In this document: positions 11,125-59,794 of the stretch, piece by piece
How the letters are laid out: the number at the start of each line of letters is the position of its first letter
Numbering within the stretch: the stretch's first letter is position 1
Origin: a virus
Virus record (IMG/VR): IMGVR_UViG_3300017746_000009
Location: 1 to 62,781 of that record
DNA length: 62,781 nucleotides
Reading direction: 5' to 3' (one strand)
Notes under the pieces: model-generated
Seen by the model: the letters and a program-made list of their open reading frames with translations, nothing else
What the model was told of the DNA's origin: nothing
Database searches by the model: none
Position numbers and translations under genes: made by a program

Positions 11125-11447
11125 GCTTCGTATTCCTCTTCTATACCTGTTTCATACGGTTCTGGTTTAGCTGTCATGTATTCTTCTACAAGTAGAAGGT
11201 ATCTTCTTAAGTCTCGTATGTCATCTAGTATACCAGAAGCACTAGGATCATTAGAAATAGCAGTAAAAATATCGTAACCCACCTTAGTAGATTGGTTTTC
11301 TATTCTATCCCACTTACGAGCTAGCATCATAAATGCTCCTACTCCTCCTCTTTTTTTCCAGCTGTCTCCGTAGGTTGTTTCCGCTACTTCTAACGCTTTT
11401 ACATCGGCATCTGTCAACGTAATCATTTTATTAAATTTATCAGTCAT
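11121..11447 (-). CDS. small all-alpha MazG-like / DUF1599-like nucleotide-metabolism protein
   Basis: TYGDSWKKRGGVGAFMMLARKWDRIEN resembles the YGDSW..RG..G....L.RK.DRL signature of DUF1599/MazG-related phage proteins. Confidence 0.45.
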   Translation of the reverse strand: MTDKFNKMITLTDADVKALEVAETTYGDSWKKRGGVGAFMMLARKWDRIENQSTKVGYDIFTAISNDPSASGILDDIRDLRRYLLLVEEYMTAKPEPYETGIEEEYEA

Positions 11448-11980
11448 TATATTCCTCCATATTGTTTAATTAATTGACCTAAAAGTAACGAGCCACGTTC
11501 GTTAAGTCTTTGACTCGCTAAAAATTCTACACCCTTACTAAATACTTTATTCATATTTGTATTACCCATCCTTCTTTGTTTCATACAGAAAAATAAAAGT
11601 TCAAACATGTCTGCTTGTTTATAAAGTATTTTTTCTTCATCAGAAATAATATTGTACTGATCTATACCTAAGACTTGTTCATACTCTTCTTCTACTTTAT
11701 TTAATATTTCTTTAAACTCTGGATGAGACCATTTTATAGGTGAGGGCATATCACCTGTATATGCTTCAGTAACGTCATGAGTAAGAGCTTTCATAATTAA
11801 ATCTTTACTTACGTTAGGTTCTAGATATTCTAAGATAATTGCTACACCCCAAGAATGAGAAGCAATAGATTGTTCACCTATCGTATCTAATGTGTGGTAT
11901 CGTTTTACAACGCCACAGTCCATTATTTCAAATATACTATCTATCATATTTATACTTTGCTCTTGGTCTACCTTGACCAA
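11447..11980 (-). CDS. HD-domain phosphohydrolase (YfbR-like 5'-deoxynucleotidase)
   Basis: SIASHSWGVAIIL and LTHDVTEAYTGDMPSPIK match the H...HD...D pattern and the YfbR segment HD.SE..TGD.PTP.K. Confidence 0.8.
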   Translation of the reverse strand: MVKVDQEQSINMIDSIFEIMDCGVVKRYHTLDTIGEQSIASHSWGVAIILEYLEPNVSKDLIMKALTHDVTEAYTGDMPSPIKWSHPEFKEILNKVEEEYEQVLGIDQYNIISDEEKILYKQADMFELLFFCMKQRRMGNTNMNKVFSKGVEFLASQRLNERGSLLLGQLIKQYGGI

Positions 11981-12782
11981 GTCTTACTCTTTCATATTTA
12001 TCAAACTCACACAAACAGTGCTCAATATCTCTCATTTCTAAAGAAGGTACATGAGGCTCTAGATATTTAGGGCTTTCAGATAATAAATCTTTCATCTCAC
12101 AGTTCCACCCTATGTAACCTACGTGTCCTCTAGTAGGACGCCAAGTTAGTTCTCTACCGTGTATTCTATTTAGCCCACGTTTAGCTCCTGGACCTGGATT
12201 AGCCCAAGTATAGATATCACGAGCGTTGCCTAAATATTTTGTATGACGTAAGTCTGTAACTACTTCATATGCCATAAAACCACTAAACCCAGCGTACCGT
12301 AAGTATCCAGACCAAGTTTTTTGTAAACTATCGGGATGTATCTCAGGTTGATTCTCATAAAGTGGTGTAAGTATTTTATCAATAGTTTGTTCTACTTTTG
12401 TACCACCTAACGTACCTGTTAACATGTAAGCACCTGTGTAAACTTTTTCTCCTTTATCCATTCTACCTTGCATAATAGCTTTGACACGGTCAGGGTTCCA
12501 CTCTTCAGGGAAACCAATCTCTTGTAAAGTGTCTGGCCAATTTATTTGTCTAGCTACCGACATAGCAAACGGTAGATTAGGGTGGTCAGCATAAGGTTCT
12601 TTCCAGTTTTTCCTTAACCATATGGTGACGCTATCTAGTTCACGAAATACATTACAGAAACTAAACTCTTTGATTATAGGGTCTTCTGTCCAAGGGGCTT
12701 GTATACCTGCTTGCCTACGACAATATATTTGATGCCTTTCATTTATATATTTAAAAAATCCATCTATTTGTTCAAGAACCAT
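11937..12782 (-). CDS. alpha-glutamyl/putrescinyl-thymine pyrophosphorylase (aGPT-Pplase)-like DNA base hypermodification protein
   Basis: FFKYINERHQIYCRRQAGIQAPWTEDPIIKEFSFCNVFRELDSVTIW and the later NPGPGAKRGLNRI match my memory of the helical 5-hmdU-hypermodification family. No Walker A motif is present. Confidence 0.6.
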   Translation of the reverse strand: MVLEQIDGFFKYINERHQIYCRRQAGIQAPWTEDPIIKEFSFCNVFRELDSVTIWLRKNWKEPYADHPNLPFAMSVARQINWPDTLQEIGFPEEWNPDRVKAIMQGRMDKGEKVYTGAYMLTGTLGGTKVEQTIDKILTPLYENQPEIHPDSLQKTWSGYLRYAGFSGFMAYEVVTDLRHTKYLGNARDIYTWANPGPGAKRGLNRIHGRELTWRPTRGHVGYIGWNCEMKDLLSESPKYLEPHVPSLEMRDIEHCLCEFDKYERVRLGQGRPRAKYKYDR

Positions 12783-18609: not shown

Positions 18610-20106
18610 ATGTATAAGAACTTACCGTTTTTAAATTATAATATTGACAAACACCTATTATTAATGGACTTTTTATTCAAAACTAAACCCTACGACCACC
18701 AATTAGAAGCTTTAGAAAAATCTTTTAATAAAGAAGAGTTTGCTTTATTTATGGAGATGGGTTGTGGTAAATCAAAAGTAGTTATAGATAACTTTGTACA
18801 TTTACACAGAGAAGGAAAAATAAACGGTGTGTTGATTATAGCTCCTAAAGGAGTTTATGATACATGGTATAGTAAAGAAATACCGAACCACGTACCAGAA
18901 GAAATAAATTATTACTGTGTAAAGTGGTCAAACGCTAATACAAAAAAGAAACAAAAAGAAATAGAAGGTCTCTACGAAAATGAAGAAACATTAAATATAT
19001 TTATTATGAATGTTGAGGCTCTAAGCACAAAAGTAGGAACTCAAAGAGCTACAGATTTTCTATTTAAACGAAAGTGTATGTTTATTATAGATGAAAGCAC
19101 TACTATAAAAAACCATATGGCTAAACGTACACAAAATACTGTACGGATAGGAAAGTATGCATACTATAAAAGGATCCTTACAGGCTCTCCAGTTACAAAA
19201 AGTCCTCTTGACCTATATAGCCAGTCATATTTTTTAGACCCTTCTCTGCTGGGCTTTAGTAGTTACTTTGCATTTAGAAATAGATACGCTGATTTAATCG
19301 ATAGAACACTCGGTAACGGTAGAACATTTAAACATATAGTAGGTTATAAAAACTTGACAGAACTAAATGAGAAACTAAACTCTTTTAGTTATCGTGTGTT
19401 AAAAAAAGATTGTTTAGATTTACCAGATAAAGTTTATCTTAAAAGAAAGATAGCTATGACAGATGAACAAAAACGTGTGTATAAAGATATACAGAAAAAA
19501 GCCAATGCTGTATTAACTCAAGGAACAGTTACAATCAATCACATAATAACACAGATTATACGTCTTCATCAAATATCTTGTGGGTTTGTAGGTTTAGATG
19601 GAGGAGGGATTACGGAACTTAAATCTCAAAGGTTGCCTGAGCTTTTAGAAATACTAGAAGAAACAGACGGTAAAGTAATTATCTGGGCAAATTATAGACA
19701 CGATATACAAAAAATAGAAGCAGAACTTACTAGAATATACGGACAAGGAACGGTAGGAACTTATTACGGAGATGTACCACAGGAAAGAAGAGAAGAAGTA
19801 ATTAATTTATTCCAAGATCCAGAAAGTAGTCTTAGGTTTTTTGTAGGTAACACTCAAACGGGTGGTTATGGTATAACACTTACTGAAGCAAGCACCGTAA
19901 TTTACTACAGTAACAACTATGATTTAGAAAAACGTCTGCAGTCAGAAGACCGTGCTCATCGTATAGGTCAAAAAAATAAAGTAACCTACATAGATATAGT
20001 TTGTGAACGCACCGTAGATGAAAAAATAGTAACAGCTTTACGTAGAAAACAAAATATAGCTCAAACTGTTCTAGGTGAAGACCACTGGAAAAACTGGCTT
20101 TTGTAA
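18610..20106 (+). CDS. SNF2-family (SF2) helicase/ATPase
   Basis: FMEMGCGKSKV (motif I), IIDESTTIKN (DExx box) and GNTQTGGYGITLTEASTVIYYSNNYDLEKRLQSEDRAHRIGQKNKV (motifs V-VI). It is the only plus-strand gene. Confidence 0.9.
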   Translation: MYKNLPFLNYNIDKHLLLMDFLFKTKPYDHQLEALEKSFNKEEFALFMEMGCGKSKVVIDNFVHLHREGKINGVLIIAPKGVYDTWYSKEIPNHVPEEINYYCVKWSNANTKKKQKEIEGLYENEETLNIFIMNVEALSTKVGTQRATDFLFKRKCMFIIDESTTIKNHMAKRTQNTVRIGKYAYYKRILTGSPVTKSPLDLYSQSYFLDPSLLGFSSYFAFRNRYADLIDRTLGNGRTFKHIVGYKNLTELNEKLNSFSYRVLKKDCLDLPDKVYLKRKIAMTDEQKRVYKDIQKKANAVLTQGTVTINHIITQIIRLHQISCGFVGLDGGGITELKSQRLPELLEILEETDGKVIIWANYRHDIQKIEAELTRIYGQGTVGTYYGDVPQERREEVINLFQDPESSLRFFVGNTQTGGYGITLTEASTVIYYSNNYDLEKRLQSEDRAHRIGQKNKVTYIDIVCERTVDEKIVTALRRKQNIAQTVLGEDHWKNWLL

Positions 20107-20850
20107 TTAACCTCTACCTAGCTGGGAAAAGTCCATTTCACCAAGGTTTCCAATATCTATACCTAGTGGGTTCATACCTAATGGGCTTAAACCTAAGGTT
20201 GGTATTCCCATGAGTGGTATTTGACCATACGTTTCTGATGGTTCTATGTTTAACATAGCAGAAGGTGGAAGAGTCACTTCACCCATATTATTAATATATG
20301 ATACTGCTCCTGGCTCTTGTAAAAATCTAGAAAATGTGTCTCTTTGCATGTCCATAAGATCTCTTGTGTTTTTATCGCTTAGTGAAGCTATACCACCCAT
20401 TTCTTCTATAGCATTAACTATTGGTGAGTATTGTACCATAGCGGGAGCATTATTCAATAAACCTAAACTACCAGCCCCGTTTTGAATTAAGTTTTTAGCG
20501 TTATTGAGTATACCAAATTTCCCAGCACCACTTTGAATTAAGTCTTCAGCGTTATTGAGTACACCAAATTTCCCAGCACCACTTTGAATTAAGTCTTCAG
20601 CGTTATTAAGTAAGCCAAGTTTTCCAATACCTTCTTGAAGCATGCTAGGAGCATTACCGAGCAGACCTCCTTTAGTCTTAGAATCAATAAGCTCTTTAAC
20701 TGAAAGTTGAGGAGAATTACCTCTAAAACCAAATATATCGTCTACACCTAGATCTCCTATACCTCCACCAGCAATAATTTTTTTATTAACAGCTTTAGTA
20801 TAGTCTCCTGGGAATCTACCTAATATTTTTCCTATAAGACCACTTATCAT
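20107..20850 (-). CDS. Gly/Leu/Asn-rich hypothetical (virion-module) protein with 17-aa tandem repeats
   Basis: Last ORF of the late array; it contains LLNNAEDLIQSGAGKFG-type repeats. Confidence 0.6.
   Translation of the reverse strand: MISGLIGKILGRFPGDYTKAVNKKIIAGGGIGDLGVDDIFGFRGNSPQLSVKELIDSKTKGGLLGNAPSMLQEGIGKLGLLNNAEDLIQSGAGKFGVLNNAEDLIQSGAGKFGILNNAKNLIQNGAGSLGLLNNAPAMVQYSPIVNAIEEMGGIASLSDKNTRDLMDMQRDTFSRFLQEPGAVSYINNMGEVTLPPSAMLNIEPSETYGQIPLMGIPTLGLSPLGMNPLGIDIGNLGEMDFSQLGRG
20481..20633. repeat. 3 x 51-bp tandem repeat inside ORF 20107-20850
   Basis: tttgaattaagt(t/c)tt(t/c)agcgttattgagta(t/c)accaaatttcccagcaccac at 20481 and 20532, with a diverged copy at 20583. Confidence 0.85.
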
Positions 20851-31062: not shown

Positions 31063-31506
31063 TTAAACATTCTCCCAAGGTTTATTTTCAAACAACAATG
31101 CTTCTGCTTTTCTTCTTTTTACTAAACCCTCTAACACTTCTCCGTTTGATTTATTCCATCTTTTTATCTGTGTAGGAACACCTTCATAGTCTTTACTATT
31201 CAATACTTCTAAAAGTGTAGAAGTTATTAAGTTAGTTGGTCCTAGATTATACACCCAAGAACACAAAGAATCAAACTGATATTGTTCAAGATCGACTTTA
31301 ACTAAACCATTTACATAATCTTCATACTCACACATTTCACCAATCAACATATCGTTGGCTTCTTCTTGTGTAATAGTGTCTCCTTCTTTTACATTTTTTG
31401 TATGTCCGTAACCAATAGTTAAGACACCAGCAGGACAGACATAAGCATTAAGTTCACAGCCTTCGTATTTTTTAATTAATGCTAACCCCTCTTGAGATAT
31501 TTTCAT
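31063..31506 (-). CDS. GH24 (T4/lambdoid-type) lysozyme, endolysin
   Basis: EGCELNAYVCPAGVLTIGYGHT gives the E-x8-(D/C)-x5-T catalytic arrangement of GH24 endolysins. Confidence 0.85.
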   Translation of the reverse strand: MKISQEGLALIKKYEGCELNAYVCPAGVLTIGYGHTKNVKEGDTITQEEANDMLIGEMCEYEDYVNGLVKVDLEQYQFDSLCSWVYNLGPTNLITSTLLEVLNSKDYEGVPTQIKRWNKSNGEVLEGLVKRRKAEALLFENKPWENV

Positions 31507-31507
31507 T

Positions 31508-31873
31508 TTATTTTTGTTCAGTTGTTGTAACTTTCCTATAATAAACTACAACTTCTTTAAGTTCATTTATGTATCTTTTTAGTTCTTGCATATTATAAGC
31601 CATCAATTCATAATCTGGGACAGACATTGCTAGAAAAACTACTTGTCCTTGATCTTTTTCAACCCTAGCTAAAAACTCTTCTATATTTTTATCAGAAACA
31701 ACATACCAATATGGTTCTTTTAAATCAATACTTCTAGGCAAAATAGGTTGAGCTATGTTTCGCTCAATCGGTTTGCTTACTATATCTACTTGCTTAGGAA
31801 TCAGGCTGCAACTGCAGACCATCATCAAGGCTATCGATATTAGTACTGTCTTTTTCAATACTTTCAAATACAT
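31508..31873 (-). CDS. lipoprotein, candidate o-spanin (overlaps the i-spanin candidate)
   Basis: Signal/lipobox LISIALMMVCSC; an 80-nt out-of-frame overlap with the upstream TM/coiled-coil gene; position directly upstream of the endolysin. Confidence 0.45.
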   Translation of the reverse strand: MYLKVLKKTVLISIALMMVCSCSLIPKQVDIVSKPIERNIAQPILPRSIDLKEPYWYVVSDKNIEEFLARVEKDQGQVVFLAMSVPDYELMAYNMQELKRYINELKEVVVYYRKVTTTEQK

Positions 31874-32186
31874 CTTTTGTACCTTTATTTACTCTTGTTT
31901 CAATTAGTCCAGGTTTTGCTGCAGCTAATCTTGTTAAATCATGTCGTTTAAATATATCAAGGTATCTGTTCATTTCAGCTTCTATTTCTTGATTACGTAA
32001 CTGTATCTCTAATAAACCTTCTGTTTGTAAAGTAAAATCTTTCTGTAGTGATTCGATAGCTTCTTTTTGTTCTTGGTCTCTTAGTTCAAAAGCTTGGTTT
32101 AGTTTAGATAAATTAGCGTTTTGTACCCACAAAAAACTACAGAGCATTCCTAATACAACTATGATCCCTATAAATATTCTACTCAT
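31794..32186 (-). CDS. candidate i-spanin (N-terminal TM plus coiled coil)
   Basis: MSRIFIGIIVVLGMLCSFLWV is a TM segment followed by a heptad-rich periplasmic part; the architecture overlaps a lipoprotein gene. Confidence 0.5.
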   Translation of the reverse strand: MSRIFIGIIVVLGMLCSFLWVQNANLSKLNQAFELRDQEQKEAIESLQKDFTLQTEGLLEIQLRNQEIEAEMNRYLDIFKRHDLTRLAAAKPGLIETRVNKGTKDVFESIEKDSTNIDSLDDGLQLQPDS

Positions 32187-33939
32187 ATGTATATATTTTT
32201 AATTCTTCGGTTTTACCCTTCACTTTAATTGGTTTTAATAATTGTAACTTATAATTAGATTTTTGTTTAGTGTTTTCACCAATTAATAAATCAGTGCCCA
32301 CTTCTTTTGTAGCCGATTCTAATCTTGCTGCGGTATTTACTGCGTCTCCGATTGCGGTATAATCAAACCTAGATGAAGAACCCATATTACCGATTACTGC
32401 TTCTCCTGTGTTTATTCCTATTCCTATGGCTATCGCAGGTAAACCCTCTGCCTGGAGTTCTACATTAAGGTCTGACATATTTTGCCAAATATCTTGAGCA
32501 CAGTTAATTGCTGCGTCTTCATGATTTTTTAAGTTTAGTGGTGCGTTAAATATAGCCATCATTGCATCACCTATGTATTTATCTACCATACCACCGTGTT
32601 TTTGTACTGCGGTTTGTTGGGCAGTTAATGCTTTATTCATTATATACGTTACTTCTTCTGGAGTTACTGATTCAGACAAAGCTGTAAACCCCCGTACATC
32701 AGTAAATAAAAACGTAGCGTACCTTTTTTCACCACCTAGTTTTAATAGTTCAGGATTTTTTTGTAGTTGTTCTACTTGCCTAGGGTCAAGGTAATGTTCA
32801 AATTGTTTTTTAATTTGTTGTCGTAATTTATATTGCTCTCTAAAACGAAAATAAAATATTATAGACCCTACAGTAAACTGACTTATAATGCTCCAAGAAA
32901 CGTCAATTAATAGCCCTTGTTTTATGATATAGTATCCTAAAAGCGAAGTTCCTATCATAAGGAAACTAAAACTTGTAACTCCTGCAGTGACGCCAAAGTT
33001 GCTCAATACAACCCAAACTAAAAGCAGGGATATAACTAAAATTAAAACTTCAATGGCTATGCTATAGTCAGGAATAAATGGACTATTTTCTATCAATATT
33101 GATTCTGCTAGTGCTACTTGTACCTTGTGTGGTTCAAGTAACCCAACTGGGGTAGCTAGTTGAGGCATTATACCTTTAGCTGTAACGCCAATAAAAACAA
33201 ACTTATTTTCTACGTTTAATTCTTTGAGTGTAGTTTCGGGAGTATTTACCCAACTTATCCATTTTCTACCAAGTGAGTCTACTTTTACAGGAGGTAGTCC
33301 TTTTACTGTTACTTCTTCTATACCGTTTTCATTTGTTTTAATTATATAAGTCTTAGCTCCTGTAAGAGCTTTTAAAACCTGTGTACCAAAACTTGCTATC
33401 CATCCTTCAGGAGTTCTATATAAAAGGGGAATTCTTCTTACAAGGTTATCAACATCTACAGGAGCAGATGCTATCCCTTCTAAAGCATTTAATCCATCGA
33501 TGTTTTTTACTATCCCTTGTGATAAATAACCTCCTCTGCCTTCTCCTAAAATTACTGTGCCTTCTGTTTTAGGGTATACCTGATTGTCATTTTCAAACAT
33601 AGCTATAACAGAAGGAGAATATGAAAGAGCTTGTTTAAAATACTCGTCTCCGCCTAACCTATCTTTATGAGGAAAAGCTAAAACCCAACCTACTCCTAGT
33701 GCTCCTTTATTGAGAATGTCTATGTGTATGTTTGCTAAAGTTTCTCTGGGGAAAGGGTAGCCCCCAGCTTTATCTACATCTTCTTCTGTAAGATTTAATA
33801 TCACAAAATTACCAGAAGGGTCAGGTGTATCTACTAAAACATCAAAAAGTTTTAATTTTAAAATATTTAAAGCTACTGGTTGAAAAACCAAAGGAAGGGT
33901 GAATATGAAAATTAAAATAAATAAAATTCTTAGCTTCAT
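32179..33939 (-). CDS. CHASE2-sensor class III adenylate/guanylate cyclase (predicted adenylate cyclase)
   Basis: An N-terminal TM is followed by an extracytoplasmic domain of about 280 aa, three TMs (VLILVISLLLVWVV..., FSFLMIGTSLLGYYII, IISQFTVGSIIFYF), then ATFLFTDVRGFTALSE, VDKYIGDAMMAIF, IGIGINTGEAVIGNMGS and RFDYTAIGDAVNTAARLES. Confidence 0.85.
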   Translation of the reverse strand: MKLRILFILIFIFTLPLVFQPVALNILKLKLFDVLVDTPDPSGNFVILNLTEEDVDKAGGYPFPRETLANIHIDILNKGALGVGWVLAFPHKDRLGGDEYFKQALSYSPSVIAMFENDNQVYPKTEGTVILGEGRGGYLSQGIVKNIDGLNALEGIASAPVDVDNLVRRIPLLYRTPEGWIASFGTQVLKALTGAKTYIIKTNENGIEEVTVKGLPPVKVDSLGRKWISWVNTPETTLKELNVENKFVFIGVTAKGIMPQLATPVGLLEPHKVQVALAESILIENSPFIPDYSIAIEVLILVISLLLVWVVLSNFGVTAGVTSFSFLMIGTSLLGYYIIKQGLLIDVSWSIISQFTVGSIIFYFRFREQYKLRQQIKKQFEHYLDPRQVEQLQKNPELLKLGGEKRYATFLFTDVRGFTALSESVTPEEVTYIMNKALTAQQTAVQKHGGMVDKYIGDAMMAIFNAPLNLKNHEDAAINCAQDIWQNMSDLNVELQAEGLPAIAIGIGINTGEAVIGNMGSSSRFDYTAIGDAVNTAARLESATKEVGTDLLIGENTKQKSNYKLQLLKPIKVKGKTEELKIYTYE

Positions 33940-35063
33940 AAACTTTGTGTAATTTGTATAATAGAATCACTACCACCATTAACTTTGATAGTATTGGTAA
34001 CTCCATTTTGAATTAAAACTATAGTGTAGCTATTTGAGGTATCTAGGTCTAGTCTGCTGGTACTACTTACGTTTCTTATAAAGGTAAGTTGTTGACCTGT
34101 AACAAATGTAGTTATCTGTGTTTCTTTATCTTGGCCAAAATCAGTACCTGTTATCTTTACACCACTAGCGTCTTGCTCTAAGGCATCTTCTTCTTCTGAT
34201 ACAGCTAATGCATCAAGTACATTTAACATATCTTCTAAAAAATTAACATCTAATGAATCAATATCTAATTCTGTAAACTCAAGTTCTCTTTCTGATTCTA
34301 AAAAATCTTCTGCTAAATAATCTATATCTAAATCATTAAAGTCTAAGATAGAAACTTTCTTATTTGTTTTTTGATTTTTTTCTTCAATCACAACTTTTTT
34401 CTTAGGTGGTGTAACTATTAACATGTTATCTATAATATCGAGCGTAAGGTCTAAAATTACTGGTTTACTAGGGGATGACTCAAACACAGATACAGTGGTT
34501 GCTTGAAAAGGTTTATTTAACAAAACTGTGCCTGTAGCTGTAACCACTTCTATTTCACCACTAGATAAACCTAGTTCGTCGGGTAATAATATTATTAAAC
34601 TTCTTCCAAGCTCATCAACAGTTGTAGTAAAATCTGTGCCTCTTATAGCAATATTAGCTGTAGGTGTTTTTAAGTTTATATTTTGTTTGTCTATTTTATT
34701 AAAAGTTCCTGTTATAAATCGTGCTGTACCTAAACCAAAAGTTAAAGCCATTTTAGACTTACTTGGGTTAGGATCAAATATATATTCGTCTATTGTAAGT
34801 TGAGAGTGTTCTGTAAGTTTTACTTGAGAATCATCTAAAAAACGTATAGCCATTCTACCATCAGTAGTAATAGCTTCGTCATTAGATTGTATATTAAATT
34901 TTAACTTTGCGTTATAAGTTTTGTCTCTTAATATCTGAGCATTGCCATAAACTTCAGATACATCTCCAATATTAGCAACCGACTGCTGTGCCTTGATCGT
35001 TTTGGTTGACGCAGAAAGTAGAAGCAGCATTACCGCCAGATGATATAATTTTGAGCCAGTCAT
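33936..35063 (-). CDS. secreted FecR-domain protein
   Basis: Signal peptide LAVMLLLLSASTKTIKAQQ and a FecR-like core (ITTDGRMAIRFLDDSQVKLTEHSQLTIDEY...TPTANIAIRGTDF). A 4-nt ATGA overlap links it to the cyclase gene. Confidence 0.7.
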   Translation of the reverse strand: MTGSKLYHLAVMLLLLSASTKTIKAQQSVANIGDVSEVYGNAQILRDKTYNAKLKFNIQSNDEAITTDGRMAIRFLDDSQVKLTEHSQLTIDEYIFDPNPSKSKMALTFGLGTARFITGTFNKIDKQNINLKTPTANIAIRGTDFTTTVDELGRSLIILLPDELGLSSGEIEVVTATGTVLLNKPFQATTVSVFESSPSKPVILDLTLDIIDNMLIVTPPKKKVVIEEKNQKTNKKVSILDFNDLDIDYLAEDFLESERELEFTELDIDSLDVNFLEDMLNVLDALAVSEEEDALEQDASGVKITGTDFGQDKETQITTFVTGQQLTFIRNVSSTSRLDLDTSNSYTIVLIQNGVTNTIKVNGGSDSIIQITQSL

Positions 35064-35700
35064 TGTTTTGAGTACTTAATTGGTTTATCGTAAAGTTTCT
35101 TTGTCCGCCTGTGTGATCTAACCAAAAGTAACCACCTGAAGAAGCTGTGACACCTGTTCCAGTATACGTCACAGTATTATCACTACCGTCTATATCCATG
35201 TAATTAGTAGCTCCGTCAATATTTATACTTGATGTTACTGTGTTATTAGAACCCTGAATAATCCAATCTAGATCTAAAGTAGCAGCAAGAGCAGAAGTAG
35301 CTTGGTTTAGTGTAAGTGCATTAGAAGCTCCAGTTACTTGAACATTTACATTTGAGTTATTAGCACCATAGGTATTAGTAGGATCTGTTTGCATAGTGAA
35401 ATTGTTTGAGTTTCCAGAAAAGTTGAAATAACCTGTATAGCTATCTGCGGTAATATCTCCTCTGAATATGTTACTACCACCTATTTGATTTATATCAAGA
35501 GTCATAGAAGTACCGTCTAAATCAAGAGGGGTCATATTTGATGCACCAGTAGCAGCAGTTAAACCACCTATGAGGTTTCCTCCCCCCATTTGCTCTATAT
35601 CAAGATTAGCTCCTGTTCCTGATTGATCGATATATATCTCATTATCAGAAAAAACCGTAGTCGTAAACAGAAGCGATAAAATAAATAATCCCTTTTTCAT
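34972..35700 (-). CDS. secreted curlin-repeat-like protein (CsgA/CsgB analogue)
   Basis: Signal peptide MKKGLFILSLLFTTTVFS. Q/N-G-N repeats include IDQSGTGANLDIEQMGGGNLIGG (compare CsgA LNIYQYGGGNSA), LDINQIGGSNIF and VQVTGASNALTLNQ. It lies next to csgG. Confidence 0.55.
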   Translation of the reverse strand: MKKGLFILSLLFTTTVFSDNEIYIDQSGTGANLDIEQMGGGNLIGGLTAATGASNMTPLDLDGTSMTLDINQIGGSNIFRGDITADSYTGYFNFSGNSNNFTMQTDPTNTYGANNSNVNVQVTGASNALTLNQATSALAATLDLDWIIQGSNNTVTSSINIDGATNYMDIDGSDNTVTYTGTGVTASSGGYFWLDHTGGQRNFTINQLSTQNNDWLKIISSGGNAASTFCVNQNDQGTAVGC

Positions 35701-35731
35701 ACAATCACCAAAGAATATTGTAACTCATAAT

Positions 35732-36553
35732 TTATTTTTTTAAAACCCAATATTCTTTTTCGTACCCTATTTTAATTAATTCTAATACTGCTCCTTCTAT
35801 AGCTTTTTGTAGAGCTATAGTTGAACTTTCATTATACGCATTACCAAGTTCTAATTCAAGTAGTTCGGTGCCTAATTCAATAAATCTAAATACATCTTGA
35901 GACTGACCATAACTTAATATAGTTTTTTCAGTCATTACTTCTATAAGTATTTCACCAGTAGCTACTGATACCATCCTAAGACTTATAGTTACAACATCTT
36001 CTTTATATTGTGTACTTGCCCCTATACCAAGATACCTTGCCCCTACACCTCCTGTTCTTACATTTGAATCATAAGAAACAACAGCTCCTTGCATTATAAC
36101 ACCAGCAAATAATAAAGGCATTAATTTTTTACTTTCTTTTTCTTCGTTGTTTGAAGCCTGTCGTGTAGAGCGTATTAACTGTCTTTCTTTAGTTAAGTTA
36201 TCTAAACCGACCCTTTCTACTACTCTAAAAAATTTACCGTTTGAAGCGTGTTTTAAGGCTCTTATAAGTAAGGCATTAGGTGCTTGAGTTACTGCTGTGC
36301 TAAATAAAGCAAACTCACCGTTACTCTTTCTTTGCCCTGTTTGATCAGTAAAACTCGTAGGATATACTGCAACTACTGGTTGAGTTTTTGGTGGAGTTAC
36401 GTTTGCAAGATCTTTTGACTGTAAAGATAATATACTTGAAAAACTGTGTTCTTCTGTTTCTGCATATTCATGAAGAACCGAAGTAGTTTTAAATAAACTA
36501 CAACTAGAAAGTAAAAGAATTGATAGGAAGAGTAATACTGGTTTCAGTTCCAT
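35732..36553 (-). CDS. csgG: CsgG-family curli secretion channel lipoprotein
   Basis: Lipobox LLLSSC. Block-wise identity to E. coli CsgG: FSTAVTQAPNALLIRALK ~ FSTAVPQSATAMLVTALK; ERVGLDNLTKERQLIRS ~ ERQGLQNLLNERKIIRA; SYDSNVRTGGVGARYLGIGASTQY ~ GYESNVKSGGVGARYFGIGADTQY; ATGEILIEVMTEKTILSYGQSQDVFRFIE ~ STGEILSSVNTSKTILSYEVQAGVFRFID. Confidence 0.9.
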   Translation of the reverse strand: MELKPVLLFLSILLLSSCSLFKTTSVLHEYAETEEHSFSSILSLQSKDLANVTPPKTQPVVAVYPTSFTDQTGQRKSNGEFALFSTAVTQAPNALLIRALKHASNGKFFRVVERVGLDNLTKERQLIRSTRQASNNEEKESKKLMPLLFAGVIMQGAVVSYDSNVRTGGVGARYLGIGASTQYKEDVVTISLRMVSVATGEILIEVMTEKTILSYGQSQDVFRFIELGTELLELELGNAYNESSTIALQKAIEGAVLELIKIGYEKEYWVLKK

Positions 36554-37007
36554 CTTGTTCTATTACCGTAAGAGTTATAAATTGTCCGTCGCTAGAATAG
36601 GATATATTATTCCCTTCGAGACTAATTGTTCCAGAAGTGTTGCTATCTTCACCAAATAAATTATTTACTAGTTGTCTAGAAAGTTCAGCGTACACTCTGC
36701 TTTCAAGATTTCGTATAAACCTAGCTACCGTAGAGCTTTCTTTTTCTCTTTCAAGATCTTCGATTTGTTGTTGTAAAGCTTCTTCAATAGCTTTTTTTCT
36801 ACTTGCCTCTTGATTTTCTATAGTTAAATAATGAGAAGAAGTTTGTTCTCCAGAAAAACTTGGTGATTTAAAATTAAAAGTTATTTCTTCTGCAGCAAGA
36901 TTTTGTACATGACTGAATGCTACAGCAAAAAGTATAAAGACAATACCGATTATACCAAACCAATATTCAATTTTTCTTTCTATTTCTGTTTTCTTTCTTT
37001 TCATCAT
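36504..37007 (-). CDS. csgF: CsgF-like curli assembly component
   Basis: A signal/TM segment is followed by ITFNFKSPSFSGEQ (E. coli CsgF TFQFRNPNFGGNP) and the C-terminal DGQFITLTVIEQDGTETSITLP (CsgF [21 protein letters not shown]). A 50-nt overlap links it to csgG. Confidence 0.65.
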   Translation of the reverse strand: MMKRKKTEIERKIEYWFGIIGIVFILFAVAFSHVQNLAAEEITFNFKSPSFSGEQTSSHYLTIENQEASRKKAIEEALQQQIEDLEREKESSTVARFIRNLESRVYAELSRQLVNNLFGEDSNTSGTISLEGNNISYSSDGQFITLTVIEQDGTETSITLPINSFTF

Positions 37008-37230
37008 CTTTTAATTCAAGTACAGTGTTTACTTTTTCTTGTAATCTTATCATATCTTGATCTAAAAGACGTAATTGATCTGTAAGCCTAATAATAGTAC
37101 TTTTCATTTCTTCTACTGCAGGGTCTATAGTATTAGTTATTGTTTGCCAAACATAGTAAACAAAATAACCTAACCCCACAACCATAACTACAGGAAAACC
37201 AAAATCGGCAACTATTTGAACTATGTCCAT
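36967..37230 (-). CDS. small N-terminal-TM coiled-coil protein, paralogue of 37230-37523
   Basis: MDIVQIVADFGFPVVMVVGLGYFVYYVW aligns with MEIFNLIAEVGVPIAGALVMAYFIFLVM of the upstream ORF; both carry the D.IR(I/L) and L(D/E)LK motifs. Confidence 0.6.
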   Translation of the reverse strand: MDIVQIVADFGFPVVMVVGLGYFVYYVWQTITNTIDPAVEEMKSTIIRLTDQLRLLDQDMIRLQEKVNTVLELKDDEKKENRNRKKN

Positions 37231-37523
37231 TAGTCTCTCCTAGCATCAATTTTACCATCTTCTACAAAGTTTTCTGCTCTTGCTATTCTATCTAAATCTG
37301 GTTTTAAATCTAATGCACTTGAAACACTTGTGTCAATTCTAATAATATCATTATTCATAATAGAAGCTCTAGTGATTAGCATTTTAGTTATTCCTTGTAC
37401 GGTTTTTATTTCACTTACTAAACCTTCCATAAGTTGTTTCATAACTAAAAATATAAAATAAGCCATAACTAATGCACCAGCTATAGGAACACCTACCTCA
37501 GCAATGAGGTTAAATATTTCCAT
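37230..37523 (-). CDS. small N-terminal-TM coiled-coil protein, paralogue of 36967-37230
   Basis: See the paralogue entry; 1-nt overlaps to both neighbours. Confidence 0.6.
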   Translation of the reverse strand: MEIFNLIAEVGVPIAGALVMAYFIFLVMKQLMEGLVSEIKTVQGITKMLITRASIMNNDIIRIDTSVSSALDLKPDLDRIARAENFVEDGKIDARRD

Positions 37524-37873
37524 TAGTTTTCGCCTTTAAATTTTTTGCTTTGTCCTGAGGTGCCTGCGTAAATACCAAAAACTGCTGCCATCGCTCCTAC
37601 TACTATAGAGACTAAGGCTGATTGTTCTAGGTTAGGTTCAGGTAAAGCCATAAACCATATTACTACTTTGTAAAGAAGCACTATATAAACACTTACGAAT
37701 ACTCTTGGAAATATTCGCCAAGCATCAACGGTTTTAGCTAGATGTACCCATTTTATAAACGGATTATCTCCGTTATTTTTAGGATTTACATCTATGTCTA
37801 ATTCAAGTTTTCTTTTTATAGGTGTTTCTTTTTCTACTATAGTATTGTCAGTAATGATTTTTTCTTCGCTCAT
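37523..37873 (-). CDS. two-TM membrane protein, holin candidate
   Basis: TM segments VFVSVYIVLLYKVVIWFMAL and ALVSIVVGAMAAVFGIYAG precede a basic C-terminus SGQSKKFKGEN. It lies upstream of the spanin and endolysin genes. Confidence 0.4.
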   Translation of the reverse strand: MSEEKIITDNTIVEKETPIKRKLELDIDVNPKNNGDNPFIKWVHLAKTVDAWRIFPRVFVSVYIVLLYKVVIWFMALPEPNLEQSALVSIVVGAMAAVFGIYAGTSGQSKKFKGEN

Positions 37874-38052
37874 ATAAATTTAGTAAGAACTATAGCCCCT
37901 ACAATAAAAGGGTAAACTCCCCAAAGTAGATTTTCTAAACGTCTAAATTTATCAGACCCTTCCTCAAGACGCTTTTCGATATTTTCATAACGTAAAGCAC
38001 ACTCTTTTTCGTGTGTTTCTATTTTATGTAAAGCGTCTTTAGTAGTCGCCAT
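37870..38052 (-). CDS. small tail-anchored membrane protein (60 aa)
   Basis: C-terminal TM segment LLWGVYPFIVGAIVLTKFI; 4-nt overlap with the downstream gene. Confidence 0.55.
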   Translation of the reverse strand: MATTKDALHKIETHEKECALRYENIEKRLEEGSDKFRRLENLLWGVYPFIVGAIVLTKFI

Positions 38053-40878: not shown

Positions 40879-41493
40879 TTAAACTCTTCTCCTAAAAGTT
40901 ACATAGTAAGTTGTGTTGTTAGCAGGAAAAGGAGCTACTGTATCTGTAGTATTAATAAAACCTACATCCGGAGCTGAAGTGTTTATTTGTAGGGTTGTAG
41001 AATTGGCAATACTTGCAAAAGTAAAATCTCCCCTATCAAAAGTAGTTGCGTTGACTACAACACTATTAAAAACATTGTTGTCGTCATTAGTTATACTAGA
41101 TGCATTTGAAGTAATTGCAAAATATTTTTGACCAGTTCCAAATAGAGTACTTGATTCACAATAAACTCCAGTAATAGTTCCTCCGCCCATATAATCAGAT
41201 TCACTAGTAGGACTTAAATTTGAAGGTGAAGTATTAGCCTGAAAACCTCTGTAATAAGTTGTTATGCTTATATAGCTTTGTGTAAAAGTTACTGACCCAG
41301 TTCCAACTGTGCCACTTTGTACAAAGTCAGCAGCTTTAGCGTACATATCAGACATTGAAAATTGAGTATTTTGATTTGAACCAGAAATAAGCCTAATATC
41401 AGAATCATTAAAACTAGCTTGACTACCAGAAGATCCTCCAGCTTCAACATGAACTTCATTAAGAGTTATTGTTCCAGATGCAGGTGTACCCAT
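40879..41493 (-). CDS. hypothetical Ser/Thr/Asn-rich protein adjacent to the tail fibre genes
   Basis: 1-nt overlap with the fibre gene upstream; the composition is typical of receptor-binding accessory proteins. Confidence 0.5.
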   Translation of the reverse strand: MGTPASGTITLNEVHVEAGGSSGSQASFNDSDIRLISGSNQNTQFSMSDMYAKAADFVQSGTVGTGSVTFTQSYISITTYYRGFQANTSPSNLSPTSESDYMGGGTITGVYCESSTLFGTGQKYFAITSNASSITNDDNNVFNSVVVNATTFDRGDFTFASIANSTTLQINTSAPDVGFINTTDTVAPFPANNTTYYVTFRRRV

Positions 41494-42722
41494 TATTTAC
41501 CCTCTAATTTTTTTACCTTTTCCTCAAGTTCTTTTATGGCTTCAATAAGTAAAGGTATGAGTTTTTCGTACCAAACTGTTAGATATTTATCGTCTATTGG
41601 TGCTGCAGTTACTACTTCAGGCAGTACTGCTTGTACTTCTTGAGCAGATACTCCAACCTGTAGTCTGTCATTTTCATAACCAAGGTCTTTAGCTGTTTGG
41701 TTTTCTTGAAAGTAATAACCATTTAATTTAGCTACTTTTTCTAAAGCGTTAGGGATAGTACCTTCAAAATCTTTTAGTCTAGCATCAGAATAAAAAGCAG
41801 TAATGTTATTGGTAGCTCTAATCTCACCTGCGGTTGTTGATCCTGCTGTTCCTACACCTAAACTATTTACTTGTGCATCTGAGTTTGTACTAAAGCCACC
41901 AGCAGGTCCTGTTGGTCCAGTCGGTCCAGTCGGTCCAGTACCTCCATCGCTTCCAGCAGGACCAGTAGGTCCAGTCGGTCCTGTGCTTCCATTATTTCCA
42001 TTCGGTCCAGTTGGTCCAGTTGGTCCAGTACTACCATCACTTCCATCTGGTCCAGTAGGTCCTGTTGGTCCTGTTGGTCCAGTACTTCCGTTACTTCCAT
42101 TACTACCGTTTGGTCCAGTCGGTCCTGTTGGTCCAGTCGGTCCTGCTAATGCTGCGTTTGTAATAGTTGCTTTCCTAATAGCACCTGCTGAAGTATCGTA
42201 TACAGCTATTAAATCACTACCTGTTATTGAAGTTTCAGCGGTTTGTCCATTGACTACATCACCAATAAATTGTGTAGCTGTTATGTTACCTGTAGATAAA
42301 TTAGCAAAAGCGTCTACCATAGCAGCACCAGAACCAGAACCATTAGAATAAATAGCTTTAGTGTCTCCTGGAGCGATAGTTACTGTTGCTCCAGAACCTT
42401 GTTTAATTATTATGTTTTGAGAACCACTTGTACCGTTTTCTATAAACCAAAGTTTAGAAATAGTGTTTGGACCGATAGTAATAGTACAAGCAGAATCTAA
42501 CGTACCTGTGTATTTAAGATACATTGATCTTCCTGGATCAGTAGCACCATCAGCTACAGTTGTAGCGTGTGTATCAGCGTTAGTAGTTATTGCTTCTGTA
42601 CCGAAGCTAAATGCTTCAGCGATTAATTCTAAATTAGTGTTAGTAACCGTTCCCCAAGTACCACTTGCGTCTCCAGTAGCCATTTCATTTAATCTTAAAT
42701 CATTTACGTATGTACTTGCCAT
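41493..42722 (-). CDS. tail fibre with a collagen-like Gly-X-Y region and a C-terminal S74 intramolecular-chaperone domain
   Basis: 27 uninterrupted G-X-Y triplets (aa 194-274). The C-terminus [28 protein letters not shown]...[16 protein letters not shown]...[23 protein letters not shown] matches the S74 chaperone signature. Confidence 0.85.
41901..42143. repeat. Collagen-like triplet repeat (GPT/GSN/GPA codon repeats)
   Basis: ggtccagt(c/t)ggtcc periodicity on the plus strand; it encodes [39 protein letters not shown]... Confidence 0.9.
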
Positions 42723-42767: not shown

Positions 42768-45056
42768 TTAAGCTACCTCTTCCCAATTAGGTGTTTGAGT
42801 CTTTGTTACATCGCTGTAATTAGCTGTTTGTGTCGTGTCTACACTACTATAATTTGCAGTTTGACTGGTATCTACTAAGCCCCAAACAGTAACTCTTGGT
42901 TCTCCTAAAGTACCTACAACCCCTATTGGTATTACTTTGGCATTTAAAAGTACAGTTACATCACCTATAGCAGAAGTTCCTGCGTTTCCAGTAACTGCGG
43001 TTACTGCTCCTGCTGTTACTGTTTCATCACCTAAAGAAGAAGTAGAAGCTACAGCAGATACACCAGTAACTGCTACTGCTTGTACTGCTACCTCACCTTG
43101 TGCTGTTGTTCCTACATTCCCAGTTAATGCTGTACTAGCACCTGCTGTTACTGTTTCGTCACCTAAACTAGAAGTACCTTCAAGTCCTTCTTCTACTATT
43201 AGAGCTCCTGCTGCTACTGTTTGGTTTCCTAATGCTGAAGTACCTAAGTTACCAGTGACCGCTATATTAGCACCACACACAACACTCTCATCACCTAAAC
43301 CTGACGTAGAAGTGGTCGCTGTAACACCTTGTACTGCGTCTCCTTCAACTACTATATTACCTAAAGTAGAAGTTCCTACATTACCTGCTGGTGTTATAAG
43401 TGACTTCGCTACGACAGTTTCGCTTCCTAACGCTGAAGTTGCAGAGTTGCCTGTCACAGAAACTACCTTCGGAAGTAAAACCGACTCGTCTCCTAATTCA
43501 GTAGTAGCTGTTACTCCTTCTTCTACTATTAAAGCTCCTGCAGTAACTGTTTCAGTTCCTAATGAAGTAGTCGCTACGTTCCCAGTAACGCTTATATTAG
43601 CAGTACATACAACACTTTCATCACCTAAACCAGAAGTAGAAGTAGTCGCTGTAACCCCTTGCACTGCGTCTCCTTCAACCGTTACGTTACCTGTTGCAGA
43701 AACACCTGTTGTGCCTGACGGTATTGTAACCGACTTCGCAATTATTGTTTCACTTCCTAAAGCTGAAGTTCCTACATTACCTGTGGTAGAAACTATTTTA
43801 GGAATTACTACTTCTTCATCACCTAATGCTGAAGTTCCTGTAACTCCTTCTTCTACTATTAATGCTTTAGCAACAATAGTCTCATCACCTAATGACGAAC
43901 TTCCTGTATTACCTGTAACCGAAGCTATTTTCGGGAGACTTATTGATTCATCGCCTAATGCTGTAGTACCTATAACTCCGTCTTCTACAACTACTGCTCC
44001 TGCGGCAATTGTTTCACTTCCTAAAGCTGAAGTTCCTACATTGCCTGTAACTGAAACTATTTTCGGGAGGCTTATTGATTCATCGCCTAACGCAGTAGTT
44101 CCTACGTTTCCTGTGACAGAAACAACAACTGAGTCAGTACTAGAAACAAGTACCGTACCTAATCCTGATGTTGCTGCATTTCCGGTAACACTTGTATTAG
44201 CAGCACAAGCAACACTTTCGTCTCCTAAACCTGACGTAGATGAAGTAGCAGATACTCCTTGTACTGCTTCACCTACTACAACCGAGCTACCTAATCCAGA
44301 AGTTCCAGCTAATCCTGTTTCTACGATTAACGCTTTAGCTACAACAGTTTCACTACCTAAAGAAGTAGTTGCGGTATTACCTGTAACCGAAAATATTTTA
44401 GGAATTACAACAGATTCAGTACCTAGTGCCGTAGTTCCCGCAGTTCCCGTAACTGAAACATTAGCTGCACAAGATACGCTTTCATCTCCTAGACCTGAAG
44501 TAGAACTTGTTGCTGATACTCCTTGTACCGCTTCACCAATAACGACTGAGCTACCAAGTCCACTACTAGAAGTGTTACCTGATACTGCAATTAATGATTT
44601 TGCTACTACACTTTCAGTACCTAATGCAGAAGTACCTGCACTTCCTGTGACTAAAACTGTTTTAGGAATTACTACTTCTTCGTTTCCTAAGGAAGTAGTT
44701 CCTACATTACCTGAAACCGAAACATTAGCAGCACAAGAGACACTTTCATCACCTAAACCAGAGGTAGAGGTAGTCGCTGATACTCCTTGTACCGCTTCTC
44801 CGATTACAACTGAACTACCTAATCCAGTTGTTCCTGAAAGTCCTGTTTCTACAACCGTAGCATTACAGCTTACAGAAACAGAACCTAATCCGCTTGTAGC
44901 GGCAATTCCATCTTCTACTACATTAGCAGAACATAGAACAGTTTCTGAACCAAGTGCTGATGTGCTGTTAACACCTGTAACACTTACATCAACAGAAACT
45001 GCTGCGGGCTGACCCCACGGACCTGAGCCCCATGTGGATCGACCCCAACCTGCCAT
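42768..45056 (-). CDS. highly repetitive fibre-like structural protein (762 aa, about 30 copies of a 22-aa unit)
   Basis: Core unit (S/V)TGN.GT(S/T)(A/S)LG(D/S/T)E(S/T)V. Nested longer repeats include GLGSSVVIGEAVQGVSATSSTSGLGDESVSCAANVSV x3 and VEGDAVQGVTATTSTSGLGDESVVC x2. Confidence 0.75.
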   Translation of the reverse strand: MAGWGRSTWGSGPWGQPAAVSVDVSVTGVNSTSALGSETVLCSANVVEDGIAATSGLGSVSVSCNATVVETGLSGTTGLGSSVVIGEAVQGVSATTSTSGLGDESVSCAANVSVSGNVGTTSLGNEEVVIPKTVLVTGSAGTSALGTESVVAKSLIAVSGNTSSSGLGSSVVIGEAVQGVSATSSTSGLGDESVSCAANVSVTGTAGTTALGTESVVIPKIFSVTGNTATTSLGSETVVAKALIVETGLAGTSGLGSSVVVGEAVQGVSATSSTSGLGDESVACAANTSVTGNAATSGLGTVLVSSTDSVVVSVTGNVGTTALGDESISLPKIVSVTGNVGTSALGSETIAAGAVVVEDGVIGTTALGDESISLPKIASVTGNTGSSSLGDETIVAKALIVEEGVTGTSALGDEEVVIPKIVSTTGNVGTSALGSETIIAKSVTIPSGTTGVSATGNVTVEGDAVQGVTATTSTSGLGDESVVCTANISVTGNVATTSLGTETVTAGALIVEEGVTATTELGDESVLLPKVVSVTGNSATSALGSETVVAKSLITPAGNVGTSTLGNIVVEGDAVQGVTATTSTSGLGDESVVCGANIAVTGNLGTSALGNQTVAAGALIVEEGLEGTSSLGDETVTAGASTALTGNVGTTAQGEVAVQAVAVTGVSAVASTSSLGDETVTAGAVTAVTGNAGTSAIGDVTVLLNAKVIPIGVVGTLGEPRVTVWGLVDTSQTANYSSVDTTQTANYSDVTKTQTPNWEEVA

Positions 45057-59558: not shown

Positions 59559-59687
59559 GGTTTATATTTATATAAAAGTAAAGGGTTTTTTTAACACATT
59601 AGGCATGATCAGATGATCGTATATGTGGTCCATGGTCCATGGTTCGTGTTGCAATGACAATGTGATTACATCAATAGTTTACAGACA

Positions 59688-59727
59688 ATGATCCTGTGAT
59701 TACAGCGAAGCCATGATCAGATGATCT
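59688..59727. repeat. 40-bp direct repeat, copy 1 (38/40 identical to 59755-59794)
   Basis: atgatcctgtgattacagcgaagccatgatcagatgatct. Confidence 0.9.
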
Positions 59728-59754
59728 TACACCATGGTCCATAGTTCATGGATC

Positions 59755-59794
59755 ATGATCCTTGGATTACAGCGAAGCCATGATCAGATGATCT
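59755..59794. repeat. 40-bp direct repeat, copy 2 (67-bp period)
   Basis: atgatccttggattacagcgaagccatgatcagatgatct. Confidence 0.9.

Follow-up and report, generated by a model that had tools for sequence, protein, structure and literature searches.

A curli-type secretion module with a predicted FecR/CHASE2 cyclase sensor pair in the lysis gene cluster of an HTVC023P-type pelagiphage genome

Why should a phage keep, among its lysis genes, the outer-membrane pore of a bacterial curli system together with a putative fibre subunit and a membrane-bound cyclase? The question is raised by a viral DNA of 62,781 nucleotides (nt) from the IMG/VR database (record IMGVR_UViG_3300017746_000009; this whole stretch is referred to as the window). 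Between positions 32179 and 37007 of the window, five consecutive minus-strand open reading frames (ORFs) code for homologues of CsgF and CsgG, a curlin-like protein, a FecR-domain protein and a CHASE2 sensor fused to a class III cyclase. A preliminary description, made from the sequence alone, had presented this block as a phage module without a precedent known to its author. We report here that the block is almost certainly the type VIII (curli) secretion module already published for pelagiphages, and that in this podophage lineage it is embedded in the lysis gene cluster. As an overall explanation, secretion of a curli-like fibre combined with sensing by a FecR/CHASE2 cyclase pair is the best that we can offer, and we would give it an even chance of being right.

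The five ORFs were found exactly where they had been placed on the minus strand, all of their reading frames are intact, and the junction sizes given for the block (overlaps of 41, 50, 92, 4 and 8 nt, and one gap of 31 nt) were reproduced to the nucleotide. The first gene (36504-37007) codes for a homologue of the curli assembly or cap protein CsgF. The match to the Pfam CsgF model spans positions 10-132 of 132 (E = 9.5e-17), phrog_35372 is matched at 1.4e-37, and the signal-anchor-like N-terminus is followed by the motif TFNFKSPSFSG; both this peptide and the second one that had been quoted, DGQFITLTVIEQDGTETSITLP, are present in the translation. A phmmer search against the Protein Data Bank (PDB) retrieved no CsgF chains, hence the relationship is detectable by profile searches only. 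The second gene (35732-36553) codes for a homologue of the outer-membrane lipoprotein secretion pore CsgG (Pfam CsgG, 2.1e-48). It aligns with the Escherichia coli CsgG structures 3x2r and 4uv3 over 228 residues (45-272; ∼3e-44, 154 bits), and its signal sequence ends in an intact lipobox, LSSC. The third gene (34972-35700) codes for a protein with a signal peptide and G-x-x-N motifs, a curlin-like secreted beta-solenoid repeat protein and putative fibre subunit (CsgA/B equivalent). The fourth (33936-35063) codes for a secreted FecR-domain protein (Pfam FecR, 7.7e-9; phrog_37870, 1.1e-66), and the fifth (32179-33939) for a membrane CHASE2 sensor fused to a class III adenylate cyclase (CHASE2, 3.3e-22; Guanylate_cyc, 1.2e-19). 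The identities first proposed for four of the five proteins are therefore borne out by profile searches, with scores far above the Pfam curated cut-offs; the curlin-like protein alone gave no match. The FecR gene overlaps the cyclase gene by 4 nt, and its own start lies 92 nt inside the curlin gene (34972-35063). An overlap of this kind (∼88-92 nt) is kept in related viral loci (L005, L006, L009 and others); since both the overlap and the FecR N-terminus MTGxKL… are conserved, it is real and not a start-codon artefact. An AlphaFold2 model of the FecR-domain protein had a mean predicted local distance difference test score (pLDDT) of 36.6 and was not used.

Is the third protein a curlin? It had been credited with Q-x-G-G-G-N repeats, and this part of the claim did not hold: the exact motif occurs once (QMGGGN, residues 37-42), with a near copy at residues 72-77 (QIGGSN), and the actual periodic unit is G-x-x-N at a spacing of 22-28 residues. 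Its curlin-like character was, in turn, supported by the family profile and by the fold. Eighteen columns are invariant across the podophage and myophage homologues, a profile of 12 phage homologues matches the solved curlin-repeat protein 8c50_A (E = 4e-5), and six of these 12 relatives pass the Curlin_rpt model (best 5e-8). The AlphaFold2 model is all beta (pLDDT 74, predicted TM-score 0.71) with the G-x-x-N motifs at the inter-strand turns, and it resembles viral models labelled 'Curlin associated' in the BFVD database (E = 1.8e-7, TM-score 0.70). From the profile and the model, it is likely that the third protein is a divergent curlin-type beta-solenoid subunit. Since only one paralogue is present in the window, there is no separate nucleator. 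The C-terminus of the FecR-domain protein (…LIQNGVTNTIKVNGGSDSIIQITQ) was considered as a further curlin-like repeat and rejected: a full-length hhalign comparison found nothing there, and the C-terminus alone gave P = 0.0087 and a probability of 4.6%. Protein-database searches returned 2274 curlin, 6601 cyclase and 6994 FecR homologues; for the curlin-like protein and the cyclase, the best 120 were phage-type relatives only.

With the E. coli csgBAC/csgDEFG system the block has in common the CsgG lipoprotein pore, a CsgF with the N-terminal TFxFxxPxFxG peptide, and a Sec-exported repeat subunit rich in Gln, Asn and Gly. It differs in the constriction-loop residues of CsgG, in subunit repeats of greater length (22-28 residues) that have diverged beyond the reach of Pfam Curlin_rpt, in the lack of CsgE, CsgC, CsgD or a distinct CsgA/CsgB pair, and in that its genes share one operon with a FecR/CHASE2 cyclase pair. 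The absence of CsgE, CsgC and CsgD, which had been noted from the start, was confirmed: neither the block nor the seven flanking ORFs scanned gave Pfam matches to CsgE, CsgC/CsgH or CsgD, and none was found among the ∼50 window proteins scanned, a set that does not cover every ORF.

What could the last two genes add to a secretion pore? The cyclase domain aligns to the solved class III cyclases 6fht, 2w01 and 3r5g, and its residues were assigned from these alignments and from motif positions. All catalytic residues are kept: the metal-binding D414 and D458, the adenine-specifying pair K454 and D526, the transition-state residues N535 and R539, and R524. In the alignments, the position of K454 is occupied by a Lys in the engineered adenylate-specific 6fht and by a Glu in the guanylate cyclase 2w01. 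Taken together, the full set of catalytic residues and the alignment of K454 indicate that the protein is, by sequence, an intact adenylate cyclase. Its hydrophobic segments lie at residues 1-29 and 287-324.

The pairing of FecR with CHASE2 is known from bacteria. A FecR-profile scan of bacterial genomes gave 72 bacterial loci, plus 8 phage contigs binned into metagenome-assembled genomes (MAGs). In many Alphaproteobacteria a FecR-domain gene adjoins a full-length CHASE2 cyclase gene; one bacterial MAG locus has the order TPR-FecR-CHASE2-cyclase, which is that of the phage, and L146 is among the bacterial loci in which FecR and CHASE2 adjoin in the phage order. Homologues of CsgG, CsgF and curlin were found in none of the 72 bacterial FecR loci, in line with Wittmers et al., who place FecR and cyclase genes outside bacterial curli operons (PMC9599517). 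In Sinorhizobium meliloti the CHASE2 cyclases CyaD1, CyaD2 and CyaK raise cyclic AMP (cAMP) on a signal received via the outer-membrane beta-barrel NsrA (PMC13001267), and CyaD1 neighbours the FecR-domain protein SMc02177 (PMC13001267, PMC5498481). In Burkholderia the 'BiofilmReg' biofilm operon combines a LysM-FecR protein with a CHASE2 kinase (PMC5192318). In phage and bacterial pairs alike, the gene for a periplasmic FecR-domain protein directly precedes that for a membrane CHASE2 protein whose output domain is cytoplasmic; they differ in that the phage pair is encoded together with curli secretion genes. In genuine SAR11 genomes, one operon codes for a CHASE2-SpoIIE (PP2C) protein and for two FecR-domain proteins. 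The FecR domains of the latter share 33-36% identity with that of the phage protein; the output of this host version is a PP2C phosphatase, whereas the phage has a cyclase. In Candidatus Pelagibacter sp. HIMB1495 (L094, 1261-11451) the genes are, in order, LysR, CHASE2-SpoIIE, a 540-amino acid (aa) unknown protein, FecR (493 aa), a weakly TPR-like protein and FecR (883 aa), with a gene for a 1898-aa Laminin_G_3 protein on the other strand. The SAR11 operon was also seen in L097, L117 and L125-L128. It is possible that this operon is the host counterpart, or the target, of the phage sensor genes. The view that FecR-CHASE2 pairs are bacterial envelope systems is thus corroborated by matching adjacencies in Alphaproteobacteria and by the CHASE2-SpoIIE/FecR cluster of SAR11, and on sequence grounds we regard the phage FecR and CHASE2 cyclase as an envelope sensor pair of bacterial type.

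The same evidence bears on a proposal of Zaragoza-Solas et al. (PMC7029224) and Wittmers et al. (PMC9599517), according to which an ungated CsgG pore would import nutrients or cofactors during infection, for instance the iron complexes that the name 'FecR' brings to mind. The lack of CsgE and the presence of a FecR-domain protein suit this idea. Given the bacterial FecR-CHASE2 pairs, however, an iron regulator is a less likely reading of FecR than an envelope co-sensor; in the block FecR is paired with a CHASE2 sensor, and the genes of a TonB-dependent transporter or of a sigma factor are not found there. Moreover, import leaves CsgF and the curlin-like protein unexplained, and a place among late and lysis genes fits nutrient uptake poorly. 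We consider a role in import very improbable.

Does the block belong to the phage at all? The window carries an exact direct repeat of 123 nt at its termini (1-123 = 62659-62781); the genome is accordingly closed as a circle and measures 62,658 bp. It codes for replication proteins (PolA, UvrD and SNF2 helicases, an archaeo-eukaryotic primase) and structural proteins (capsid, portal, the large terminase subunit TerL, tail fibres). TerL is 62-63% and the portal protein ∼50% identical to those of Pelagibacter phage HTVC027P and phage 023Pt_psg01, which identifies the genome, as judged from these sequences, as that of an HTVC023P-type pelagipodophage; the phage probably infects SAR11. Scans of IMG/VR gave 80 loci with the CsgG query and 78 more with the query for i-spanin, the inner-membrane spanin encoded downstream of the block. 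In the metagenomic contigs that carry CsgG with enough flanking sequence, the curlin-like protein was present in 103/103, FecR in 100/100, CsgF in 80/80, and a family of small membrane proteins encoded upstream of csgF (TM97/TM87, see below) in 66/66. Well over 100 independent viral contigs show this gene order. From this co-occurrence we conclude that selection acts on the whole gene set, and from the recurring gene order that the block is not chimeric. At the DNA level, the 7.1-kb region had no match among 50,697 phage records, hence the similarity is at the protein level only.

That the block is nevertheless a bacterial insert, a misassembly or a decaying remnant might be argued from its alphaproteobacterial homologues, from relatives binned into MAGs (L086-L093), and from a split cyclase match in L066 and L236. 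Both block junctions recur across many independent metagenomes, including the near-identical loci L003 and L004 (89-100% amino-acid identity); the contig closes on its terminal repeat; the GC content is uniform (0.31-0.34 across the block vs 0.30-0.42 genome-wide); the reading frames are intact and the catalytic residues conserved; and no bacterial FecR locus of the 72 carries CsgG, CsgF or curlin homologues. This explanation is practically untenable. The eight contigs L086-L093 carry the full module and were deposited in bacterial MAGs labelled Pelagibacter, Parvibaculum, Maricaulis, Neomarinimicrobiota, Luteolibacter and Flavobacteriaceae; mis-binning of phage contigs is the probable cause.

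How new is the module? The claim that no such phage module had been described proved wrong, since it has been described several times already. Searched with CsgG, the 50,697 phage records yielded the pelagimyophage HTVC008M and four genomes of the methylophage Melnitz, in which CsgF, CsgG, a curlin-associated protein, a FecR-domain protein, a second curlin and an adenylate/guanylate cyclase are annotated (Zhao 2013). Zaragoza-Solas et al. (2020) gave an account of the 'curli operon' in pelagimyophages, for which they put forward a role in uptake or 'sibling capture' (PMC7029224), and Buchholz et al. (2022), who modelled the Melnitz CsgGF pore, suggested that it takes part in the timing of lysis in the manner of a pinholin or secretin (PMC9004378). 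For HTVC023P-type podophages, Wittmers et al. (2022) reported one or two 'histidine kinases' (HK), CsgF, CsgG, CsgA/B, FecR, an optional further CsgA/B and an adenylate cyclase, with CsgE and CsgD absent; they found transcripts of the module in ocean metatranscriptomes, estimated that it makes up ∼0.1% of assembled ocean viral proteins, and proposed its transfer across phage families (PMC9599517). The roles put forward in the preliminary description (aggregation, superinfection barrier, pore or lysis function) are likewise already in the published papers.

The block in the window agrees with the module of Wittmers et al. in phage lineage (TerL, portal), in gene set and order, and in the lack of CsgE and CsgD; clades V, VIII and IX of these authors carry DNA-hypermodification genes, as does the window (PMC9599517). 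It differs from their module in that the optional second curlin gene is lacking. Their paper makes no mention of holin, endolysin or lysozyme, so the position in the lysis cassette is not discussed there (PMC9599517). HTVC008M and Melnitz share with the window a pair of the TM97/TM87 type, CsgF, CsgG, curlin, FecR and cyclase, at 30-50% amino-acid identity (49.8% for CsgG of HTVC008M). In contrast to the window, they are T4-like myoviruses with a second, longer curlin paralogue between FecR and cyclase, and their module lies between replication and tail genes, not beside spanins and endolysin.

In the window, the cyclase gene is followed by a complete spanin pair and an endolysin gene, all on the minus strand. 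The i-spanin (Rz-like) gene (31794-32186; phrog_739, 2.6e-11; N-terminal transmembrane segment) overlaps the cyclase gene by 8 nt. The o-spanin (Rz1-like lipoprotein) gene (31508-31873; phrog_812, 5.4e-12; signal sequence with Cys, ..MMVCSCS..) overlaps the i-spanin gene by 80 nt, and a lysozyme-type endolysin gene lies next to it (31063-31506; Pfam Phage_lysozyme, 3.6e-46; phrog_7, 3.9e-57). The i-spanin gene is the next gene after the cyclase in 33 of 50 contigs, and in seven contigs without cyclase it directly follows FecR. Locus L210 is an empty site, in which the flanks of the module are joined without curli genes: TM60, a 141-aa ORF, TM116, TM97, TM87, a 57-aa ORF, i-spanin, o-spanin and endolysin. 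In L234 and L237 the cluster of small membrane-protein genes likewise stands without curli genes. The cultured phages HTVC027P and HTVC023P, as well as 023Pt_psg01, were considered as possible empty sites and rejected; upstream of their vsp620 homologue, where 2OG-Fe oxygenase and tail genes lie, synteny is lacking, and hence these three are uninformative in this respect. The downstream genes and their conserved adjacency bear out that in this podophage lineage the curli block is embedded in the lysis gene cluster. A promoter scan gave 48 sites (47.1 expected) and a terminator scan 11 terminator-like sites (4.9±2.5 expected), none of them convincing within the block, so that these scans neither support nor refute a promoter of its own. 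The gene overlaps and the all-minus-strand structural context make it plausible that the block lacks such a promoter and depends for its expression on that of the late or lysis genes.

Upstream of csgF, also on the minus strand, lie four genes for small membrane proteins. TM60 (37870-38052; 60 aa) has a single C-terminal transmembrane segment (hydrophobic residues 42-60) and no family match. In the window its gene lies upstream of the curli block; in at least 21 related contigs a TM60 homologue directly abuts i-spanin, in the order cyclase-TM60-iSpanin-oSpanin-endolysin, which makes it a candidate holin or other lysis-cassette gene. TM116 (37523-37873) has two transmembrane segments (residues 54-78 and 82-106) and matches phrog_10198, of unknown function, at 1.7e-21, vs 0.043 for the holin phrog_1299. 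In relatives with two copies of the TM97/TM87 family, TM116 precedes the pair.

TM97 (37230-37523; N-terminal transmembrane segment and helical tail; phrog_18771, 2.2e-24) and its paralogue TM87 (36967-37230; phrog_18771, 1.3e-27; holin phrog_4898, 6e-4) form the pair next to csgF, which TM87 overlaps by 41 nt. The family is also present upstream of csgF in HTVC008M and Melnitz, and among cultured phages it is confined to genomes carrying CsgG. By position and copy number only, the two proteins are apparently the published 'histidine kinases'. We rejected this label: none of 18 family members matched HisKA, HATPase_c or HAMP at E ≤ 1, and the proteins measure 87-115 aa (87-97 aa for the pair in the window). 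The only functional similarity found is to holin PHROGs, with phrog_4898 matched by five of the 18 (best 1.8e-6) and another holin PHROG by two; four members gave sub-threshold matches to YvrJ (best E = 0.037). In the preliminary description the block was flanked by holin-like proteins on one side and by spanin and endolysin genes on the other. The second flank stood firm; the first is weaker, with 6e-4 for TM87 as the holin match in the window, and from sequence the pair is best described as holin-like membrane proteins travelling with the curli genes. TM97 and TM87 are more conserved than their neighbours (78-93% vs 52-72% identity). TM97 of the window is 90-93% identical to those of L202, L206, L210, L215 and L233, with 52-65% identity in CsgF, CsgG, curlin and FecR of these loci. 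This conservation points either to strong constraint on the genes for the small membrane proteins or to their recent exchange.

These neighbours lend some weight to the idea that the CsgG/CsgF pore has been repurposed for lysis or release. In such a scheme an outer-membrane pore or gated secretin would help with the timing or execution of lysis, and the holin-like pair would do its part in the inner membrane; the FecR/CHASE2 cyclase would tune the timing as a sensor of envelope state, and the curlin-like protein would be an accessory or a plug. The conserved position between small membrane proteins and spanin/endolysin genes, the holin similarity of the TM97/TM87 family and its constant association with csgF in both phage families are consistent with it. 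So is the lack of CsgE, owing to which the pore may be ungated (PMC9599517), and so is the case of Melnitz, for which Buchholz et al. suggested their lysis role and in which a fibre phenotype was not seen (PMC9004378). However, the myophage modules are not beside recognisable lysis genes, and with a spanin pair and an endolysin already complete an extra outer-membrane pore is not obviously needed. Furthermore, a pore of roughly 1 nm does not disrupt the outer membrane, and the universal retention of CsgF and of a secreted curlin-like protein would go unexplained. We regard this alternative as unlikely.

Since CsgF and a secreted curlin-like protein are retained, we favour secretion of a fibre over a bare pore, at odds that we would set at even or slightly below. 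The block would be co-transcribed with the late, structural and lysis genes and translationally coupled. The CsgG, CsgF, curlin-like and FecR-domain proteins would be exported via the host Sec pathway; CsgG, once lipidated, would form the outer-membrane pore, capped by CsgF, and the curlin-like subunit would be secreted through it and polymerise on the infected cell as a curli-like fibre. Such a fibre may alter the cell surface late in infection, for example by promoting aggregation ("sibling capture") or by blocking other phages. The periplasmic FecR protein and the CHASE2 cyclase would convert a periplasmic or outer-membrane cue into cytoplasmic cAMP, and the two holin-like proteins encoded before csgF may be the inner-membrane partners that tie the module to the lysis programme.

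Several observations weigh against fibre secretion with cAMP signalling. Melnitz-infected cells did not clump, as judged by cytometry or transmission electron microscopy (Buchholz et al., PMC9004378), and the fibre role is a prediction from sequence. As a single sequence, the curlin-like protein has no Pfam Curlin_rpt match even at E ≤ 10, and a Foldseek search of its model against the PDB gave no significant hit (best E = 0.38, generic beta-helices). The constriction of CsgG diverges: in the HMMER alignment, E. coli 'pyp-asnF' is aligned with 'sngefalF', and the Phe alone is kept. This podophage has no CsgE gate, CsgC or separate CsgB-like nucleator. With regard to signalling, no effector that binds cyclic nucleotides, or cAMP receptor, was found among the same ∼50 window proteins (not every ORF). 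The cyclase is present in 73 of 82 contigs with CsgG and missing in ∼11% of relatives, and is therefore not essential to the core function. Lastly, the expression timing is inferred from gene layout. In L066 (3100-4667) and L236 (333-2025) the cyclase was matched as two overlapping pieces, which suggests a frameshifted or decaying gene and is consistent with cyclase dispensability.

A bolder proposal is that the curli block is a functional extension of the lysis programme and not an independent accessory module placed among late genes. TM97/TM87, CsgG/CsgF, the curlin-like protein and the FecR/CHASE2 cyclase would then form one envelope-spanning circuit that senses the state of the periplasm or outer membrane and, through cAMP, times lysis or fibre release, in loose analogy to lysis inhibition; the phage FecR might plug into the CHASE2-PP2C/FecR pathway of the host. 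If so, the co-transfer of the TM97/TM87 pair and the curli genes between podophages and myophages would reflect a functional dependency. We consider this proposal rather improbable.

The module is abundant, with thousands of homologues found, and would provide SAR11, which ranks among the most abundant bacteria, with a secretion system absent from the host itself. It is not a new class of phage module, and the window is one more HTVC023P-type carrier genome. What is added here is the position within the lysis cassette of podophages, with at least one relative in which the same flanks are joined without the module; the holin-type appearance of the published 'histidine kinases', which are never separate from csgF; and the recognition of the FecR/CHASE2 cyclase as a predicted sensor pair of bacterial type with a counterpart in the SAR11 host. 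These are incremental leads and not a new kind of system, and they could help to focus experiments with HTVC008M and Melnitz, the cultured phages that carry the module.

Other features of the window were observed in passing. A minus-strand cluster at 9345-12782, with a thymidylate-synthase-like protein, a TET-associated glycosyltransferase (TAGT) and a 5-hydroxymethyldeoxyuridine (5-hmdU) DNA kinase, suggests thymidine hypermodification. An ORF of 762 aa (42768-45056, minus strand) consists almost entirely of diverged 66-nt (22-aa) repeats with higher periods of 132, 264 and 330 nt; it gave no PHROG, Pfam or tblastn match and is likely a fibre or decoration protein. The 691-aa antisense ORF that mirrors it (42937-45012, plus strand) is probably a repeat artefact. 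The ORF at 41493-42722 (minus strand) is a tail-fibre gene, the C-terminus of which matches many tail-fibre PHROGs; at 41890-42153 it contains 18 copies of a 9-nt period (GGTCCNGTN-type, collagen-like G-x-y). Three tandem 51-nt (17-aa) repeats lie at 20446-20598, within an ORF (20107-20850, minus strand) for a 247-aa protein without a family match. Near the end of the gene map, at 59671-59794, two direct repeats of 57 nt share 86% identity and are separated by 67 nt; they may represent a regulatory or replication-origin element. Finally, the SNF2-type helicase gene (18610-20106) is the only large gene on the plus strand and coincides with a local inversion of both GC and AT skew at 19-20 kb.

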